DNA of 64,000 nt, from assembly GCA_964516765.1 (NCBI GenBank), contig CAZEWZ010000001.1:72755-136754 (forward strand). The letters run 5' to 3'. Made by a program: the position numbers and the translations under genes. A model generated the notes under the pieces. That model had not been told where the DNA came from. It did no database searches and saw only the letters and a list, made by a program, of their open reading frames with translations. Positions 38,344 to 46,538 of this stretch are shown here, one piece after another. Each line of letters begins with the position of its first letter. Positions within the stretch are counted from its first letter, which is position 1. The stretch is from an uncultured Cryomorphaceae bacterium (GTDB taxonomy: Bacteria; Bacteroidota; Bacteroidia; Flavobacteriales; UBA7430).

Positions 38344-39822
38344 TCACAAATTTTTCAAGTATTTATCCGCATTGAGTAGGTGCTGAGATTTTTTTTCGGG
38401 ACTCATTTTTTCGAAAGTATTAATCAGCATAGATAGTCTTGGATTTTTTCTCATCAAATTTCTATGTTTGTCCATAAATCTCCAGAAAAGACCGTCCCAA
38501 ATTTCAGCCCACTCTCCTTTTTTATAATCACTCATTTTAACTATGTAATTAGACCCACTAATATATGGCTTGGAGGCAAAATAGCCTCCATCAGCGAATT
38601 GACTCATGCCATAAACATTGGGAACCATTACCCAATCATAAGCATCTATAAAGAGCTCCATAAACCAACGATATACCTCGTCTGGGTCAAATTCACAAAG
38701 GAGCATGAAATTCCCAATAATCATTAATCTTTCTATGTGATGGCAATAGGCATGCTTTATTACTTTTTTTATCGAATCGTCAAGCGGGACAATACCTGTG
38801 GTTCCATCATAAAAGCTCGAAGGTATTTTTTTCTTGAATTCAAAGCTGTTTTTGGTTCGCGAAGCAATTCCCTTGACTTCATACATTCCACGTATAAATT
38901 CTCTCCAACCAACAATTTGTCTGAGAAATCCTTCTATTGAATTGAGGGGTACCTTATTCTTTCGACCAAAAGATAACGCTTCAGTTATGAGTTCTTTTGG
39001 TTGGATTAATCCCACATTTAATAGTGGAGAAAGAATACTGTGGTTTAGCCAAACTTCATCGCTAACAATTGCATCTTCATAAGGACCAAATTCATTAAAT
39101 CGCTTTAGAAGAAATTCTTCAATCCAATGATGAACTTGATTTCTTTCAAAGGGATAAGAAGGCTTTTCGGGAAGCTTTCCAGGGTTCTTTGGGAAATGAG
39201 TTTGGACATAGTCTATTGCTGATATCCAAATCTCATTACTCTGAAGCTGTGGTGTTGGGGGGGGGGTTTTTGTTTTGGGATACTTTCTTCTATTATCTGC
39301 ATCATAGGTCCATTTTCCTCCTTCGGGTTGGTCATTTTCATCGATAAGTAACCGATGTTTTATTCTTTGGAGTTTGTAGAATGAAGTTTGAAAAAATTTC
39401 TTTTTTTGGATTTTGAAAAAAGATTTTAGATCTTCTCTATCATTAATAAATAAGGGGTTTTCATATTCCTTAACGGGTATCTTGTATTTTTCTATGGCCT
39501 TATTTATCCTTCTTTCTAGCCAGCAATCTGTGGGATTGATATAATGTAAGGTGAAAGGCCTCTCTTTTTGACTTTCACAGAGAAAGACACGAATATCAGA
39601 ACGTTTTTCGGTACTAGAGATATACTCCAAATCAATCTTTCTAGATTGAAGATCTAGAAAATAAGCCTTCATACTCGCTCGATGAAATGCTAGCTTTTGT
39701 TTATGAAAATTAAATTCTTTAAAGAAAAGGAATTCTTCGATTAAGAACAGTTGGTCACATTTTTCATGTATTTCATGATTTAAAAATAATTGATGTGGAA
39801 ATAATATTCCTATATGTTTCAT
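38344..39822 (-). CDS. Cryptochrome/photolyase family protein, 'photolyase-related' (COG3046, PhrB/CryB-like) subclass
   Basis: 492 aa. The N-terminus [13 protein letters not shown] is typical of this subclass. Also present are LSP.LN.G, GWREF.RG, HHIERLM..GNF and FADGG..ASKPY.SGSNY...MSDY. The start ATG overlaps the DUF2256 stop (ATGA). Confidence 0.85.
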
Positions 39823-40031
39823 AAGTCATTTATGCTTAGTTTGTTTCTCCGACACCGTTCACTGCAATAACGAACATCTTTCCAATTTTTTTCCCATTTT
39901 TTTCTCCAATTAAAGGGTCTTAAGCAAATTTTACAAATTTTTTGTGGCAAATTTGATTTTGAATATTTCTTGTCTTTAATCAAACTGTAATTGTTTTTTT
40001 CCGTGTTTCCAAAACTTAAAAAAAGACCCAA
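39819..40031 (-). CDS. DUF2256 zinc-ribbon protein
   Basis: The C-terminal part reads [32 protein letters not shown]. The ATG at 40031 would overlap the upstream ORF by 56 nt. An in-frame TTG at 39981-39983 gives a 54-aa product and overlaps it by only 8 nt, so it may be the real start. Confidence 0.7.
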
Positions 40032-41073
40032 TTTCTTCTGGGGCTTCGAAAAGCCATTCTCGTGCTTCTTCTGTGCCGCTGTATTTGTGATTGAACGGAT
40101 GTTCTTTGTAGATAATTTCCGAAGAGTTACAATGTGCTTTTAGTTCAGAAAATTCTCCCACAAATACCTTTATGTTTGGGATATTATTTTTTAGTAACAT
40201 CATAAAGTCGATGCAGTTTTTGTTGATCGGATACTCAGAGAATATACTCGGTTCCAAGAGTAAGATTCGATTTGTATCTTCCTTTTTATGCCAATAGGGG
40301 TCTAGATTATAATAATTGTATATGAGAGTTTTTTTCTCGGGGTCTATTTCTGGGAGTTCTGACTTTGGTAATGGAGATTTTAAAATAAATGCCTGACTTT
40401 CTAAGAGTATTTTGGGGATAGTCAAATTTGGAAATTCTTCGTAAGGTATATCAATAAAAGTGTCCTGTTGTTGGGTGAAAAAGAAGGTGTTTATATTGTC
40501 TTGGTTAGCATAGTATTTTTTGCTAGAATTTGAGCCTGCAACCCATTGCCAGCTCAAAGCGTTCGAACCCCAGTCTCCATCTAAAAGTTGGCTATACATC
40601 CATTTTGCAGGAATGAGCCAATGAGAATGTGCTACATTACAAGCTATCGAGCTGACATACATACGCATATGGTTGTGTAGGTATCCATGATCTTTAAGAG
40701 CTACTATTTCTTGGTCTACTGCAATAATCCCTGTTTTTCCATCTACGATACTCTTTGGGATTAAATAGTTCGCGATCGGAGCTTGCGTTTGTTTAATGAA
40801 ATGGTTAATAGCTTCTTTTTTACTGCACCAAATACGTTGCCAGAAATCTCTCCAAGTGAGTTCTTGCACTAATTTCTCGATTTGACTAAAAGGTAATCCT
40901 GAGCTAGATATTTCTTTAAATACTCCTTGTGTAGAAAGAACACCTCTTGATATATATGGCCCCAGATAGGTGAGCTGTCCATCTTTATAATTTCGGGTTG
41001 AGGCATATTTTCTGGGATCAATTTCTTTAACTTTACGTTCAATTTCATAAAGAGAGGTGGGGAATACAGTCAT
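39976..41073 (-). CDS. Photolyase-like flavoprotein with inverted domain order (FAD-binding domain N-terminal)
   Basis: 365 aa. Residues 1-215 carry photolyase FAD-domain motifs (Y...RN......[47 protein letters not shown]). No preceding alpha/beta domain is present. A roughly 150-aa alpha/beta-like extension follows instead. Confidence 0.75.
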
Positions 41074-41116
41074 AATTTTTTATGATTCAATTGCAAAGCT
41101 AAGGAGAATTAAGCTA

Positions 41117-42613
41117 TTATTTATGTTTTTTATTTCTAGGTTTTTTGGGACGAACATGAACCCCCAAGAGTCTAAGAGACTCTTTCTTTACTTCGGGATC
41201 TTTTTTTAATGCCCATAATTTATCTCTGTTTGGAAGCTTTCTTTTTTCAGGGTTAACTATGGGGGCAGGATAGTTAAGTTTAATTTGTCCTCCCAGTAAA
41301 TCGATTGGAGTAAGCATCCATGGTTGGTGGATAAAAGCCAGGGGCAAATCTCTTAGTTCGGGAACCCAACTGAGAACAAAGATACCATCGGAATCTTTTT
41401 CTAGAGATTGCTTGACCGGGTTGTATATCCTGATTGCATTTATTCCAGTGACACCTGCCTGCATTTGAAATTGTGTATAGTGGATGCCTGGTTCGTAGTC
41501 CAAAAATAATTTTGCCATGTGATAAACTCCTCTTCTCCAGTCTTGGTCGAGATAATGACATAAAAAAGAAACCAGCATAGCCCGCATCCGAAAGTTTAGC
41601 CAACCTTTGTGATGCAAACATCGCATACTCGCATCAACCAATGGAAATCCCGTTTCTCCAGCCTTCCATTTTTCAAGGAATACATTATTATTTTCATAAG
41701 ACATTTTTTCATATCCTTTGTTGATACAATAGGATTCATAAGTACAGTCTACTTCAAACTTTTGGATAAAGTGAGATCTCCATTTTAGTCGGGATAAAAA
41801 AGAATCATAGGCTCGTTTTTGACTCTGATAATTTGGGGCGGAACGAACAGATTGATAAGCCATTCTGACGCTGAGATTTCCCCAAGCAAAATATGGGGAA
41901 AGTCTTCCGCATGATATACTACTTTTTTGAGGGCTAGAAATTTGTCTGGAATAGTTTTTGGCTCTTTTATTAATAAAAGATTTGAGATATCTCATAGCAT
42001 AACTTTCACCAGCAGGTTGAAATTGAGGGGGATATTTAAGTAGGAAAGGGAAGTTTTTGAGATTAAAATCAAAAGGAGATTTTATAGATTTATGGGTGCT
42101 TATACTGAATTTATTTTTGAATATTTCTTGATTTGTATAAAGGTACCATCTCTTGTCCCAACCCACTCTATTATTGATTCCTCGAATAATTCCTTCGGTT
42201 TGGAACTCCTTCCATTTCACACCTTTTTTTTTGAATAATGAAGAAATATTTTTATCCCGATTCCAAGTGATTTTAGTTCCACTTTCTTGATGTGAAAATA
42301 CATTTTTTAGTTTGTATTGTGAGATTAAAAATTCAAAGACTTCTTTTGCCTCTCCGTGAAATATTTGAATATCTCTATTCATCGGCTCCAGAAACTTATT
42401 CATGTCTAGGAGCGAATGATAAACAAACTGAAGATGTCTTTTACTTACATCTTTATGGATGATAAGTGAGGGTTCAAACAGGTAAACAATCAGATAGTCC
42501 TCTTCCTGACTTTCTGCCTGAAATAAGGCTTCATGGTCTGAAGTTCTTAGGTCCCTTTTTAGCCAAACAAGATTCATTTGATTCAATAGAATTTTTTTTA
42601 CAAAAATACGCAA
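41117..42613 (-). CDS. Cryptochrome/deoxyribodipyrimidine photolyase family protein (canonical topology)
   Basis: 498 aa. The N-terminal alpha/beta domain reads LVWLKRDLRTSDHEAL. The FAD domain has LSPYFAWGNLS, GW.NFRMRAM..SF and LDYEPGIHY.QFQMQAG. The real start is probably the internal Met at 42577 (MNLVWLKRDLR). Confidence 0.88.
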   Translation of the reverse strand: MRIFVKKILLNQMNLVWLKRDLRTSDHEALFQAESQEEDYLIVYLFEPSLIIHKDVSKRHLQFVYHSLLDMNKFLEPMNRDIQIFHGEAKEVFEFLISQYKLKNVFSHQESGTKITWNRDKNISSLFKKKGVKWKEFQTEGIIRGINNRVGWDKRWYLYTNQEIFKNKFSISTHKSIKSPFDFNLKNFPFLLKYPPQFQPAGESYAMRYLKSFINKRAKNYSRQISSPQKSSISCGRLSPYFAWGNLSVRMAYQSVRSAPNYQSQKRAYDSFLSRLKWRSHFIQKFEVDCTYESYCINKGYEKMSYENNNVFLEKWKAGETGFPLVDASMRCLHHKGWLNFRMRAMLVSFLCHYLDQDWRRGVYHMAKLFLDYEPGIHYTQFQMQAGVTGINAIRIYNPVKQSLEKDSDGIFVLSWVPELRDLPLAFIHQPWMLTPIDLLGGQIKLNYPAPIVNPEKRKLPNRDKLWALKKDPEVKKESLRLLGVHVRPKKPRNKKHK

Positions 42614-42645
42614 GGCTATGCAAAGTAAGTTAAGTAATGTAAATA

Positions 42646-43026
42646 TTAATTACAACAAAGTTGACATGTTCCCTGAATCAAGACATGTGAGTGGCTTATT
42701 TTTCGATGAGGTATTTTAGGGATATGTATTTCAAAGGGTAGGCAGTCCATTTTCCCACAAATCAAACATTGAAAGTGTGGATGAACATCTATGTGTTCTG
42801 TATCAGAGCAACCAATGCATTTTGCATACCATCTGATTCCATTTTTACTCAGAAAAGAGTGTAAAACCCCATCGTCTTCTAGTTTTTCTAAAACACGGTA
42901 AATGGTAGTCTTGTTTAATTTGTTGCTTAAACGTTTGACCAATTCAATAGCGGATATCCCACCATCTTCTTTAATAAACTCACTCAACAATATTTCGACC
43001 GATTTGGTCATTCTGATAATCCCCAT
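42646..43026 (-). CDS. Fur-family transcriptional repressor
   Basis: 126 aa. Has a winged-helix N-terminus (TTIYRVLEKLEDDGVLH) and C-terminal metal-site CxxC pairs (CIGC, CLIC, CQLCC). Confidence 0.85.
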   Translation of the reverse strand: MGIIRMTKSVEILLSEFIKEDGGISAIELVKRLSNKLNKTTIYRVLEKLEDDGVLHSFLSKNGIRWYAKCIGCSDTEHIDVHPHFQCLICGKMDCLPFEIHIPKIPHRKISHSHVLIQGTCQLCCN

Positions 43027-43037
43027 TTATTTTTTAT

Positions 43038-43090
43038 TACAACTTTGTTGCATCTAATTTAATACATATATTTGCAACTGAGTTGCGTTA
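43038..43090 (+). promoter_or_regulatory. Bipartite promoter/operator module, copy 1 (upstream of the MerC-domain gene, inside the divergent fur-like intergenic region)
   Basis: The sequence is TACAACTTTGTTGCAT-N13-TATATTTG-CAACTGAGTTGCGTTA. It holds two CAAC-N3-GTTG palindromes. The second overlaps a perfect Bacteroidota -7 box TAnnTTTG at 43067-43074. Confidence 0.55.
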
Positions 43091-43104
43091 ATAAATGATA
43101 ACTA

Positions 43105-43509
43105 TTGATGAAATTAACATTACTTAAATCTGATGCCCTAGGTATTTTTGCAAGTACATTGTGTATGATACACTGTTTGGCTACGCCATTTTTGTTTATT
43201 GTGCAATCTTGTAGTTCTAGTTGCTGTGAATCAGCCCCATACTGGTGGAAGGCATTTGATTTTGGATTCTTAGTGTTTTCATTTTTTGCGGTTATTAGAT
43301 CTGTAAAAACCTCTTCCAATAAATTAGTCAAAAACCTATTATGGATTTTGATGATTACACTTTTTTTGATCATATTAAATGAAAAAAATACAATTATTGT
43401 TTTACCAGAATTTATGAAATATATAGTCGCCTCTAGTTTAATTTTTGTGCACTTATACAATTCTAATTATTGTCAATGTAAAAATAAAGGCTTTTGTTTA
43501 AATAATTAA
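43105..43509 (+). CDS. MerC domain-containing membrane protein
   Basis: 134 aa with 4 TM helices. The first helix carries ASTLCMIHCLATP (C..HC). The likely true start is the ATG at 43108. Confidence 0.72.
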   Translation: MMKLTLLKSDALGIFASTLCMIHCLATPFLFIVQSCSSSCCESAPYWWKAFDFGFLVFSFFAVIRSVKTSSNKLVKNLLWILMITLFLIILNEKNTIIVLPEFMKYIVASSLIFVHLYNSNYCQCKNKGFCLNN

Positions 43510-43670
43510 AGTAATTGATTCTAACACCTCTATTAAGTAAAATTCATACCCTCATATTTTTGAAGTTTTCTTCCAAAATATCATTCTACTTATTAATTAT
43601 ACCATCAGCTATTAATCTATATTTTTTCACTTAATAAATTATGAAAAGTATTGTTTTATATATTTTTTAG

Positions 43671-43725
43671 TACAACTTAGTTGCATTAGTGATTTAATGT
43701 ATATATTTGCTACAAAGTTGCGTTA
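43671..43725 (+). promoter_or_regulatory. Bipartite promoter/operator module, copy 2 (upstream of the TonB-dependent receptor)
   Basis: The sequence is TACAACTTAGTTGCAT-N15-TATATTTG-CTACAAAGTTGCGTTA. It has the same architecture and near-identical sequence to 43038-43090. The -7 box lies at 43702-43709. Confidence 0.55.
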
Positions 43726-43795
43726 GTTGATTCTTGATTTATTCTAGGAGACTATTTCAAGAATTCACTATGATGTTTTTTACACTCAATAAATT

Positions 43796-45991
43796 ATGAA
43801 AAAACTCATTTTCATTTTTTTTATACCTCTATTCATTAATGCTCAATCTTTCAGAGTAATTGATAAAGAGTCCAAAGAGGTTATTCCTTATGCATCTGTT
43901 GAAGTTCATGAGATGCAGATTCAATCTATGTGTGACGAAAATGGAGCTTGTGATATCAAGATTATTTCTAGGAACAGTCCAATACTTGTTTCTGCAGAAG
44001 GATATGAATCAAAGAGTTTTATTTACAAACCCAAAGAGTCAAACATTCATTTAATTGAGCTCGAAAAGGCTCATATTATATTGAATGAAGTAATCATTTC
44101 TCCGACCACAGGAATCATTCAACAGCATAACTTATCCAATGTGTTTTTGAAGTCTATTTCTTCGCCTAATCAATTAATAACCTCTAATCTAATGGGAATT
44201 ATTTCAAGTGTTCCTGGAGTGTATTCGATTCAAACAGGAGCGGGAATTAGCAAACCTGTCATTCGGGGAATGTCGGGGTTAAAAGTAGTGACTTTTTTAA
44301 ATGGTCTTCGTATCGAAAATCAGCAATGGGCAAATGATCATGGAATTAATTTTAGTGGTTTGGGAATAAAGGCTGTTGAGGTTGTAAAAGGTCCTTCTTC
44401 ATTGCTATACGGTGCTGATGCATTGGGTGGTGTTTTGTATTTTGTCGACGAAGATTACGTGAGTCCCAACACTGTCCAAAGTTCTTTTGAAACTCAGTTT
44501 GAGAGTAATTCGCTTTCTACCAGAAATATAGCCAATCTAAAAATAGCTTCAGAAAAGTTTAGGTTGAATGTCCATGCGGGATTTCAAAACGCTGCAGATT
44601 ATCAAATTCCTAACGGGACTTTCGTCGTAAATTCTAGGTTTAAGGGTAAAAGTATTAAGACTTCTTTGGGTTACAATAAAGACAGTTGGATGGTTAATCT
44701 TAGATACAATCACAATTCTAATCAAATAGGTCTACCTGGTCATACACATTCAGCCAACCCTAACCCTTATGACTTTCAGTCAAGCGTTCAAAATAGATAT
44801 AGAGTGGTTCCTTTTCAGCTCATTTCAGACCACTATTTGTCTCTAGAAAATAAGATATTTTTTGGTAATTCGGTATTAAAATTACTTACAGGATTTACTT
44901 CAAACAGTCTCACAGAACACGAAGAAAAGGTGACTATTCCGGGCATCAAAATGCTTCTAACAAATTTCCCGTATCATCTTTCATATACCACTCATTTTAA
45001 TGAGGATATAACGTGGATTTCAGGAGCACAGGGGATGTGGACCAAAAATATTAATGATGATTCAGCTCTAAACATCTTGATTCCTAATTCTACTTCTAAT
45101 GATTATGGTGCCTATTCTCTTCTTCAGTATTCTAAAAGTCAATTTGAAACCCAAATAGGATTCAGATATGATTACCGAGAAATCAATTCAAATCAATTTA
45201 TTTCGAAAATTTTTTCTAAACTAAATGGATCTTTTGGTCTTGTGTATCAAAAGAATTCTTTCACCTTAAGATCTAATTTTAGTTCTGGATTTCGTCCTCC
45301 CCACTTGAGCGAAATGCTTGCCGATGGTGTCCATCACGGAACCAACAGATATGAAATTGGTTCCCAAGATTTGGTCAGCGAATTTGCTAATCAATATGAT
45401 GTGTCATTAGATTATAAATCTGAACATGTTAACTTTAATATGAATCCTTTTTATAATAGTTTTAAAAACTATATTTTCGTTGAGCCCACAGCCGATTTCA
45501 TTGATGGCTATCCAGTCTATGTCTATTCTCAGGCACCTTCAGCTAAGACATACGGGGGGGAAGTATATTTTCATTACCATCCTCATTTTGTTCATAGAAT
45601 TCACATAGAAAGTGATTTTTCATATGTAATTGGACAAGACAATAACAATAACCCTTTACCTCTAATTCCTCAAACCAGAATGAATACGAATATAAAATAT
45701 GAATTTGGTGAACAAAAAAATAAGCTTAAAATCCAGACACTAATTTTTCAAAGAACTGAGTATTTAGACAAAGATGATGTGTCTTCTTTCGAATCAAGAT
45801 CTTCCCATTACCAGATTTACAATGTGGAAGCAAACTTTTTGTATCAAGCGAAACAATTGACGCGCATTAAGTTAGGTGTGAGGAATTTGTTTAATACTAG
45901 ATATATCAATCATTTATCAAATTTAAAAGGGATTGGCTTGCCAAGCCCTGGGATTAATTTTTATTTTTCAATCAATTATTTAATTAACTAA
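43796..45991 (+). CDS. TonB-dependent receptor
   Basis: 731 aa. Signal peptide, a CarboxypepD_reg-like N-terminal domain, a plug (GMSGLKV...NG.R...Q...DHG) and a C-terminal barrel ending in an aromatic residue region. Confidence 0.9.
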   Translation: MKKLIFIFFIPLFINAQSFRVIDKESKEVIPYASVEVHEMQIQSMCDENGACDIKIISRNSPILVSAEGYESKSFIYKPKESNIHLIELEKAHIILNEVIISPTTGIIQQHNLSNVFLKSISSPNQLITSNLMGIISSVPGVYSIQTGAGISKPVIRGMSGLKVVTFLNGLRIENQQWANDHGINFSGLGIKAVEVVKGPSSLLYGADALGGVLYFVDEDYVSPNTVQSSFETQFESNSLSTRNIANLKIASEKFRLNVHAGFQNAADYQIPNGTFVVNSRFKGKSIKTSLGYNKDSWMVNLRYNHNSNQIGLPGHTHSANPNPYDFQSSVQNRYRVVPFQLISDHYLSLENKIFFGNSVLKLLTGFTSNSLTEHEEKVTIPGIKMLLTNFPYHLSYTTHFNEDITWISGAQGMWTKNINDDSALNILIPNSTSNDYGAYSLLQYSKSQFETQIGFRYDYREINSNQFISKIFSKLNGSFGLVYQKNSFTLRSNFSSGFRPPHLSEMLADGVHHGTNRYEIGSQDLVSEFANQYDVSLDYKSEHVNFNMNPFYNSFKNYIFVEPTADFIDGYPVYVYSQAPSAKTYGGEVYFHYHPHFVHRIHIESDFSYVIGQDNNNNPLPLIPQTRMNTNIKYEFGEQKNKLKIQTLIFQRTEYLDKDDVSSFESRSSHYQIYNVEANFLYQAKQLTRIKLGVRNLFNTRYINHLSNLKGIGLPSPGINFYFSINYLIN

Positions 45992-46004
45992 ACCTTTCTT
46001 TAAA

Positions 46005-46301
46005 ATGTTAAAAAACTCATTTTCTTTTAAAAAACTTGGATTGTCCATTGGACTTGTCCTTTTGGCTTCATGTAGCAGTGAAGAATGTGCCGACTGCCAT
46101 GTTGTTGTTGACATTGATGGTATGGAATATGAATTAATGGAATTAGGAGAGTACTGTGACGATGCTTTACATTCTGTCGAGGAAGACGGTTACGCTGTTG
46201 CCGATACTATTCTGGTGGATGCTGATGGAGGATTACTTCCAAGCCCAGTTTATCCTGGAGATCCTGTAGAGGTTCATTGTGGAGAAGAGCATGACCATTA
46301 G
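46005..46301 (+). CDS. Small acidic Cys/His-containing lipoprotein
   Basis: 98 aa with the lipobox LLASC. Has a CADCH motif near the N-terminus and HCGEEHDH at the C-terminus. It starts 13 nt after the receptor gene. Confidence 0.5.
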   Translation: MLKNSFSFKKLGLSIGLVLLASCSSEECADCHVVVDIDGMEYELMELGEYCDDALHSVEEDGYAVADTILVDADGGLLPSPVYPGDPVEVHCGEEHDH

Positions 46302-46340
46302 AATTCTTACACTATTTTATCTGTTAGGATAAAAATTGTT

Positions 46341-46370
46341 AAAAATGCCACTCATTTGAGTGGCATTTTC
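46341..46370 (+). terminator. Rho-independent terminator after the receptor/lipoprotein pair
   Basis: The sequence is aaaaATGCCACTCatttGAGTGGCATtttc, a 9-bp perfect stem with a 4-nt loop and a T-rich tail. Confidence 0.8.
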
Positions 46371-46450
46371 TATTTATGAGAATTGTTTGAGGAAGAGTCA
46401 AATTTGGTTTAAATTGCTTTTTTTTAGGCTACCCCAGAATTCCTTTTTGT

Positions 46451-46484
46451 TTGACACAATGTTAAAAAGGAGTGGGGTTATATA
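46451..46484. repeat. Direct repeat, copy A (flanks the lipoprotein gene 46539-47186)
   Basis: TTGACACAATGTTAAAAAGGAGTGGGGTTATATA matches 47273-47309 (TTGACACAATGTTAAAAAAGGTAGGCGGCGGTTTATA). The first 20-21 nt are identical apart from one extra A. Confidence 0.8.
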
Positions 46485-46538
46485 ATATATATGGGCTACT
46501 ATTACTCCCTCCGAAACCGATTATTTTTAGGGGGTGGT

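Follow-up and report, generated by a model that had tools for sequence, protein, structure and literature searches.

Occlusion of a promoter by a metal-loaded repressor of the Fur family is textbook regulatory logic. Classical zinc uptake regulators (Zur), such as those of E. coli, B. subtilis, S. coelicolor and cyanobacteria, are Fur-family dimers that contain a Cys4 structural zinc site and bind a two-fold symmetric operator of about 15–23 bp, which overlaps the promoters of genes for zinc uptake and zinc sparing. They are often autoregulated, and two dimers bind per promoter in E. coli (PMC6103462). The operator most similar to the one studied here was predicted by Rodionov et al. 2004 (Genome Biol 5:R90; PMC545781), who described ATGCAACnnnGTTGCAT as a 17-bp Zur_D box in two Desulfovibrio genomes. 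It lies upstream of znuABC-zur_D, and Zur_D is a divergent Fur-family regulator (PMC545781). We analyzed a 64,000-nt stretch of contig CAZEWZ010000001.1 from an uncultured Cryomorphaceae bacterium, hereafter called the window, in which two copies of a promoter module carry this palindrome in pairs next to a gene for a Fur-family protein. We consider it likely, with a probability of roughly 0.8, that each module is a sigma-A promoter with two 15-bp operators for this divergently encoded, Zur-type repressor.

Module 1 (43038-43090) has the layout TACAACTTTGTTGCAT-N13-TATATTTG-CAACTGAGTTGCGTTA and module 2 (43671-43725) the layout TACAACTTAGTTGCAT-N15-TATATTTG-CTACAAAGTTGCGTTA. A sequence-only reading of the same DNA had described both as modules of about 55 bp, and the letters are exactly as given there when the window sequence is re-read. 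That reading had counted four CAAC-N3-GTTG palindromes; the four sites are real, with three exact copies and a fourth, CTAC-AAA-GTTG, that has one mismatch, and a fifth exact copy at 42653-42663, in the 3' end of the regulator gene, had been overlooked. In module 1, the distal palindrome TACAACTTTGTTGCA (43038..43052) has one mismatch to TGCAACNNNGTTGCA and overlaps the -33 element of the MerC promoter, and the proximal palindrome TGCAACTGAGTTGCG (43073..43087) is the top-scoring site of the window at 24.1 bits and would cover about -6 to +9. In module 2, the distal palindrome TACAACTTAGTTGCA (43671..43685) overlaps the -33 TTG, and the proximal palindrome TGCTACAAAGTTGCG (43708..43722) has two mismatches to the consensus and scores 15.3 bits.

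The palindromes are strongly overrepresented and tightly clustered. Four exact copies of CAACNNNGTTG occur in the window (42653, 43040, 43075 and 43673), as compared to a mean of 0.51 in dinucleotide shuffles; none of 100 shuffles reached four, and all four copies fall within 1.03 kb. A search for the 15-mer TGCAACNNNGTTGCA with up to two mismatches returned precisely the four module sites (43038, 43073, 43671 and 43708), against a shuffle mean of 1.48. With a weight matrix, these sites scored 24.1, 15.3, 14.7 and 14.6 bits, no other site in the window exceeded 8 bits and the maximum among 20 shuffles was 11.3 bits; the matrix was trained on 226 related sites whose core positions were fixed by the search pattern, so that the scores are partly circular. 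The rough consensus YRCAAC-N3-GTTGYR proposed earlier does include the TGCAAC half-sites, but the conserved unit is 15–17 bp long, (A)TGCAAC-N3-GTTGCA(T), and exceeds the CAAC-N3-GTTG core.

The comparison with Desulfovibrio was made at the level of the operator. By hand count, the window sites match the Zur_D-type consensus ATGCAACnnnGTTGCAT at 12 (43037-43053), 12 (43072-43088), 12 (43670-43686) and 11 (43707-43723) of the 14 specified positions, and many sites in related loci match at all 14. The D. desulfuricans site ATGCAACtgaGTTGCAT shares its 11-bp core with window positions 43075-43085, and in both systems the palindrome accompanies a Fur-family regulator gene, located beside zinc-uptake genes in Desulfovibrio. 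The suggestion that the operator was undescribed does not hold, as the same 17-bp palindrome ATGCAACnnnGTTGCAT had been predicted as a Desulfovibrio Zur box in 2004 (PMC545781). What differs is the arrangement. The Zur_D prediction covered two Deltaproteobacteria with one single site apiece, whereas the flavobacterial sites are paired at about 38 bp and are fused to the -33 and -7 boxes, and the genes behind them, for a MerC-like protein and a TonB receptor, are not those of znuABC-zur_D. Classical Zur boxes are more distant, being AT-rich 7-1-7, 9-1-9 or 23-bp palindromes such as TAAATCGTAATnATTACGATTTA, in contrast to the 6-3-6 palindrome with a G/C-containing core in the window. Literature searches returned no published Zur or Zur box for Bacteroidota, although RegPrecise, which lay outside these searches, may hold such an entry. 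They also returned no description of the paired, promoter-embedded layout, within a searchable literature that is incomplete. The paired architecture and the regulon content are thus modestly new, with the operator itself predicted before.

Both modules have the sequence features of Bacteroidota sigma-A promoters, namely a -7 box TAnnTTTG and a -33 TTG about 17–21 nt upstream. The -7 boxes are perfect copies of TATATTTG, located on the plus strand at 43067..43074 for the MerC promoter and at 43702..43709 for the promoter of the TonB-dependent receptor. The -33 element of module 1 is TTTG (43044-43047), with a 19-nt spacer to the -7 box, and that of module 2 is TTG (43681-43683), with an 18-nt spacer. 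In the mapped start sites of F. psychrophilum, TAnnTTTG is located at -12 to -5 (PMC9723704). By this rule we predict transcription starts at about 43079 and 43714, the latter giving a 5' untranslated region of about 82 nt. Counted from these predicted starts, the proximal palindromes would lie at about -6 to +9, and the distal palindromes at about -41 to -27 in module 1 and -43 to -29 in module 2. A sigma-70 promoter scan returned two sites as compared to 8.7 expected, none of them at the modules, an uninformative result of the kind expected for a Bacteroidota promoter grammar.

The fusion of palindrome and promoter is precise. In both copies, TATATTTG ends at the identical offset, -6 from the centre of the proximal palindrome. 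The same offset was found in other organisms, where a perfect TAnnTTTG ends at -6 in 54 of 109 promoters that face a gene other than the regulator, against a background of about 1.5% (in the window, TAnnTT precedes only 1.5% of TG dinucleotides). In these 54 promoters, as in both window modules, the last TG of TAnnTTTG is the TG of TGCAAC. The distal GTTGCA can likewise be read as the -33 element, since at a 38-bp spacing its TTG falls 19 nt upstream of the -7 box. The modules thus have the boxes of an ordinary sigma-A promoter, 18–19 nt apart, but these boxes consist in part of bases of the operators, with the -7 TG shared with TGCAAC and the -33 TTG located inside GTTGCA. The earlier proposal that one palindrome sits at -33 and the other is fused to the -7 box over the predicted start is thus supported by the recurrent offset and by the start maps of F. 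psychrophilum.

Promoters that face the regulator gene follow another geometry: the -7 box ends at -12 from the proximal centre in 13 of 37 cases and at +16 in 10 of 37, with very short leaders. In regulator genes elsewhere, the start codon is usually located 21–28 nt from the nearest palindrome centre. At some loci (L003, L014, L035, L057 and others) the -7 box is only 4–5 nt before the regulator ATG, which implies leaderless or near-leaderless regulator transcripts.

The palindromes could alternatively function in RNA, as a hairpin, an attenuator, a terminator or an uncharacterised small RNA, and the folding of copy 1 gives this idea some footing, since on either strand its fold is more stable than those of shuffles (z about -3.4). 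However, this signal arises because two similar palindromes are mutually complementary, and copy 2 folds no better than shuffles (z = +0.29). A search of Rfam over 42000-46500 gave nothing meaningful, and neither module has a terminator-like site. The predicted start is downstream of the distal palindrome. The N3 spacer varies, whereas the two half-sites show symmetry on both strands, and the sites occur upstream of genes in either orientation. We rejected the RNA-level role as highly improbable, given the lack of an Rfam match and a fold signal that is confined to copy 1 and follows trivially from its similar palindromes.

The candidate repressor is a 126-aa protein encoded on the minus strand at 42646..43026, with its start codon 11 nt from the distal palindrome of module 1. 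It matches the Pfam family FUR (PF01475) at residues 4-94 with 27.2 bits against a cut-off of 23.1 (E=4.5e-6). In an alignment of 24 diverse regulators located next to the sites, R44 and L46 of the recognition helix (NKTTIYRVL or DRVTIYRVL) are invariant. H56, H82, H84, C87-x2-C90 and C121-x2-C124 are conserved and C95 is nearly invariant. The motif H82-x-H84-F-x-C87-x2-C90, which together with C121-x2-C124 is invariant or nearly so and is typical of the Cys4/His-rich pattern of the Fur family, aligns with HHHLVCRAC of S. coelicolor Zur. Such residues suit a dimer of the Fur family in which four Cys residues would form the structural Cys4 site and His/Cys residues, as putative ligands, the sensing site. 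From these features and from the genes behind the operators we infer that the protein is a zinc uptake regulator (Zur-like), probably autoregulated. The label Zur is used in a functional sense and is not a claim of orthology, because the regulator represents a distinct branch. Its named homologues belong to Bacteroidota and Methylophilaceae.

We collected related loci by two routes, one starting from the protein and one from DNA alone. The protein-first set contains 15 loci with regulators that are 22–89% identical to that of the window. A near-consensus palindrome is located beside the regulator or its neighbouring operon in 14 of these 15 loci, and a pair is present in 10; of the exact pairs in this set, 8 of 9 are spaced 38–39 bp apart. 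In eight genomes with a 45–68% identical regulator (L001-L008), TGCAAC-N3-GTTGCA occurs upstream of the regulator in seven. Four of these seven loci have a pair exactly 38 bp apart at this position, and L008 has an additional 38-bp pair elsewhere in the locus. Among three close relatives (70–89% identity), the block TATATTTGC.AC..AGTTG is invariant and the flanks have diverged; the block is invariant over seven aligned promoter regions, including relatives with 63–89% identical regulators. Distant relatives (22–30% identity) show the same layout. In Marinilabilia salmonicolor, two perfect palindromes 39 bp apart precede a zur-znuA-znuC-znuB operon, and on a Saprospiraceae contig two palindromes precede a receptor-188aa-zur operon. 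The L008 contig is labelled Balneolaceae, and its regulator is 62% identical to that of the window, which is unusually high for another phylum; this could reflect horizontal transfer or a mis-binned contig.

For the DNA-first set, metagenomes were scanned for TGCAAC-N3-GTTGCA followed, after a gap of 19–25 nt, by GCAAC-N3-GTTGC, with no use of protein information. At least 120 loci were obtained, many of which span only 1–3 kb. Six matches (L011, L016, L028, L029, L075 and L090) were GC-rich tandem repeats and were excluded as unrelated. Counts for this set refer to the matches listed. The pair spacing, for which 33–39 bp was allowed, peaks at 38 bp (25 cases at 37 bp, 54 at 38 bp and 27 at 39 bp), and a regulator homologue is encoded in 58 of the 120 listed loci. 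The suggestion of the sequence-only reading that the Fur-like protein may be the binder is supported by these counts, with the palindrome beside the regulator gene in 14 of 15 protein-first loci and a homologue in 58 of the 120 DNA-first loci.

Co-occurrence alone does not distinguish a regulator from a regulated gene. An unlinked transcription factor might bind the palindromes, with the Fur-like gene as merely one of its targets, and about half of the listed DNA-first loci lack a regulator homologue in the fetched stretch. This absence carries little weight in the many loci of 1–3 kb. The association is kept in three lineages and with regulators down to 22% identity, while the target genes vary freely; a 15-bp site with two-fold symmetry suits a Fur-family dimer, and genes for other DNA-binding proteins do not recur in the vicinity of the sites. 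We regard an unlinked factor as very unlikely.

The regulated metal had been left open in the sequence-only reading, and the genes behind the sites in the comparative set now point to zinc. The gene content was surveyed in 129 sequence sets, consisting of the 120 listed metagenome loci, L001-L008 and the window. COG0523 GTPases are encoded in 43 of the 129 sets. Directly behind the paired sites, ZnuC-like ABC ATPases were found at 10 of the listed loci, P1B-type ATPases at 16 and paralogues of threonyl-tRNA synthetase (ThrRS) at 4, and other genes behind the sites encode DUF1826, DsrE-like proteins, TonB receptors, FolE, PhoX and a thioredoxin-reductase-like protein. COG0523, ZnuABC and paralogues of ThrRS, FolE and HisI are recognised contents of Zur regulons (PMC2770081; PMC6103462), and we assign zinc because the genes behind the sites match this content. 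Operators located before zinc-uptake and zinc-sparing genes, as typical of the Zur class, were found at loci outside the window (ZnuACB, ZIP, the HisI paralogue, COG0523, FolE, PhoX, ThrRS and DUF1826).

The sequence comparisons show the sites with their statistics and conservation, their co-occurrence with the regulator family, their constant position with respect to the promoter boxes and the zinc-related genes behind them; the binding and its stoichiometry, zinc as the signal, a repressing rather than an activating role and the positions of the starts are inferred. With sufficient zinc, each palindrome would be occupied by one zinc-loaded dimer. The distal dimer would cover the -33 element, for which the right half-site GTTGCA itself provides the TTG, and the proximal dimer, on a site that shares its first TG with the -7 box, would cover the start, such that RNA polymerase would be excluded. 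When zinc is scarce, the repressor would leave; module 1 would then drive transcription of the gene for the MerC-like protein, and module 2 that of the genes for the receptor and its small Cys/His lipoprotein. The regulator gene, 11 nt from module 1, would probably be autoregulated.

Several observations weigh against the proposed Zur-type repressor and its paired operators. All NCBIfam models for Fur, Zur and PerR score far under their cut-offs for the regulator (Zur PRK11639, 16.5 bits against 167). No match to a curated Zur equivalog and no close similarity to a characterised Zur were found; the closest solved structure is that of S. coelicolor Zur (3mwm, E=0.002), and the similarity to characterised Zur proteins, including the solved structures, is weak and only marginal. 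The distal palindrome is less conserved than the proximal one, is imperfect (TACAAC) in the window and is lost in an 89%-identical relative (L133); the distal site may be dispensable, or partly just a -33 element. The TACAAC variant is also seen in two Polaribacter loci (L005 and L006). In the window, no canonical -7 box for the regulator's own promoter occurs at offsets -12 or +16 from the proximal centre, and the nearest candidate, TAAATTAG, has five of six specified positions at offset -9; autoregulation is weakly supported in the window as a result. COG0523, ZnuABC, FolE, PhoX and similar zinc proteins were not found by tblastn in the 64-kb window, so that the window holds no classic zinc marker; zinc is deduced from other genomes. 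Finally, the P1B-type ATPases, if they are exporters, could imply activation or another logic at some promoters.

Some of these points bear on an alternative in which the operators and the Fur-family protein are the same, but the signal is iron, manganese, cobalt, nickel, copper or peroxide and the receptor and the MerC-like protein import the metal concerned. Beyond the absence of COG0523 and ZnuABC from the window, it can draw on the top NCBIfam matches of the receptor, which are heme/hemoglobin receptor models, on the naming of MerC for mercury transport and on the COG0523 family, which includes cobalt- and iron-linked members (PMC2770081). On the other hand, the sites precede the standard zinc-sparing set (ZnuABC, ZIP, COG0523, FolE, ThrRS, HisI paralogues, DUF1826 and PhoX), no siderophore, heme-oxygenase, manganese-transporter or catalase genes were seen across the loci, and the same box precedes znuABC-zur in Desulfovibrio. 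We thus consider another metal or signal unlikely, and retain zinc as the predicted signal.

The relative L133 also informs on the history of the locus. It has the same gene order, regulator-MerC-receptor-lipoprotein, and retains only the proximal palindrome with its -7 box. The gap between the MerC and receptor genes is 286 bp in the window (43510-43795) and carries module 2, as compared to 61 bp without a module in L133 (2527-2587). Since the similarity of module 2 to module 1 extends past the operator consensus into the flanks, module 2 is probably a recent local duplication of module 1 that gave the receptor a regulated promoter of its own. The shared flanks and the absence of module 2 from L133 would also suit a mere duplication of a strong promoter, with palindromes that have no regulatory role. 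Against this, the palindrome is kept with fixed geometry at orthologous and non-orthologous promoters on hundreds of unrelated contigs, and we give such an explanation hardly any weight.

Some regulators adjoining paired sites belong to Methylophilaceae (Betaproteobacteria), where the same design was observed. The two protein-first loci from this family carry palindrome pairs 38–39 bp apart (L131, 4477-4529; L132, 4435-4488), and with L087, L111, L040, L095, L123 and L079 the spacing ranges from 37 to 39 bp. The targets are COG0523 genes or an operon of ZIP, a HisI paralogue, COG0523 and an amidohydrolase, the latter in Methylobacillus. In these promoters, the distal GTTGCAT supplies the -35 hexamer TTGCAT, the spacer is 16–18 nt long and the -10 hexamer TAAAAT abuts GCAAC. 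As read from these sequences, the spacing of about 38 bp is accounted for by promoter geometry in both promoter grammars. A cooperative contact between dimers was considered as another cause of the spacing and judged unlikely, because at 10.5 bp per turn a distance of 38 bp amounts to about 3.6 helical turns and places the sites on nearly opposite faces. In E. coli, two Zur dimers share one box, whereas the window has two separate boxes that are offset in phase by about 0.6 of a turn.

We tentatively propose, as a possibility short of even odds, that the loci represent a widespread Zur branch in Bacteroidota, Methylophilaceae and probably Desulfovibrio, with G/C-containing 6-3-6 operators, typically paired at about 38 bp, that are made from the promoter itself, with MerC-like importers and with PhoX tied to zinc. 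If true, the -33 or -35 element is at the same time a half-site of one operator, and the other operator directly adjoins the -7 or -10 element, a design kept across two sigma-factor promoter grammars, and the pair shared with Betaproteobacteria of the -35/-10 type would be an example of repressor sites that co-evolve with core promoter elements. The MerC-like membrane proteins would then add a new class to the zinc importers under Zur control, and in marine flavobacteria PhoX and other zinc-free substitutes would be linked to zinc status. Flavobacteria of marine and fresh waters play a major part in degrading organic matter. Among the proteins with which they appear to respond to zinc starvation are PhoX, COG0523 chaperones, alternative FolE and ThrRS, TonB receptors and MerC-like proteins, which bears on zinc-phosphorus co-limitation. 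For Bacteroidota zinc regulons, TGCAAC-N3-GTTGCA, often paired at 37–39 bp, would provide a usable operator model, and the MerC-domain proteins and the small Cys/His lipoprotein are nominated as components of zinc acquisition.

The first gene behind module 1 encodes a MerC-domain membrane protein (43105..43509, plus strand; Pfam MerC, E=7.4e-18) and is divergent from the regulator gene; translation probably begins at the ATG at 43108. MerC homologues were found in 29 of the 129 sequence sets, often encoded by the gene that immediately follows the paired operator. The MerC-domain proteins of the window and of seven other loci (L014, L024, L035, L042, L053, L057 and L082) have a conserved LC(M/I/L)xHC in the first membrane helix. 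We consider the MerC-like protein a candidate Zur-controlled inner-membrane zinc permease; literature searches found no description of MerC-like proteins in Zur regulons.

Module 2 precedes a TonB-dependent outer-membrane receptor (43796..45991, plus strand) with the Pfam domains Plug, TonB_dep_Rec_b-barrel and CarbopepD_reg_2. Receptors of the ZnuD type in Neisseria, Acinetobacter and Caulobacter are similarly located directly behind a Zur-type operator (see PMC4176598). The window receptor differs from these in its N-terminal carboxypeptidase-regulatory-like domain and in having its own 98-aa Cys/His lipoprotein, and its matches to ZnuD and to the heme receptor models are distant and below cut-off (ZnuD, 133.9 bits against 950). 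Orthologues that adjoin the regulator are 70% (L133) and 74% (L134) identical, and TonB receptors recur downstream of paired operators at five further loci (L066, L079, L104, L130 and L036). We regard the protein as a candidate zinc receptor. The lipoprotein gene (46005..46301, plus strand) was read as co-transcribed with that of the receptor; its product carries CxDCH and a C-terminal HCGEEHDH and matches no family in Pfam or NCBIfam. Lipoproteins of 98–102 aa are encoded directly downstream of the receptor in the window, in L133 (9-317) and in L134 (1376-1672), with invariant CxDCH, central Cys and HCGEEHDH. These Cys/His motifs suggest a metal-binding partner of the receptor.

At other loci, P1B-type heavy-metal ATPases of 660–698 aa lie behind 16 paired operators (L039, L044, L055, L074, L086, L109, L110, L119, L121, L125 and others). 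PhoX is a calcium- and iron-dependent alkaline phosphatase that does not need zinc. In marine flavobacteria, its gene is found in an operon behind the operator (L002, 1330-2997; L005, 1136-2818; L082), a placement that suggests that the choice of phosphatase is tied to zinc status. The form of FolE expected in a Zur regulon is the zinc-independent FolE2. The FolE encoded in an operon divergent from the regulator (L003, 2868-3521; also L005, L006, L008 and L135) is of the ordinary PF01227 type, and that of L003 keeps the zinc-ligand motifs CEHH and HLC and is not FolE2.

The overlooked fifth palindrome, CAAC-AAA-GTTG at 42651..42665, is located inside the last codons of the regulator gene, which encode C-Q-L-C-C with the C-terminal CxxC. 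It has no equivalent at the same place in L001-L008 and scores below the weight-matrix threshold, and we rejected it as an operator on these grounds; it is probably a by-product of coding. The next gene might use a copy of TATTTTTG at 42601-42608 on the minus strand, but the palindrome is about 45 bp upstream of this copy and does not cover it. Directly downstream of the regulator gene, the minus strand (38344-42613) carries three genes of the photolyase/cryptochrome family, one with DNA_photolyase and FAD_binding_7, one with FAD_binding_7 alone and one with DPRP; no link to the operators was seen.

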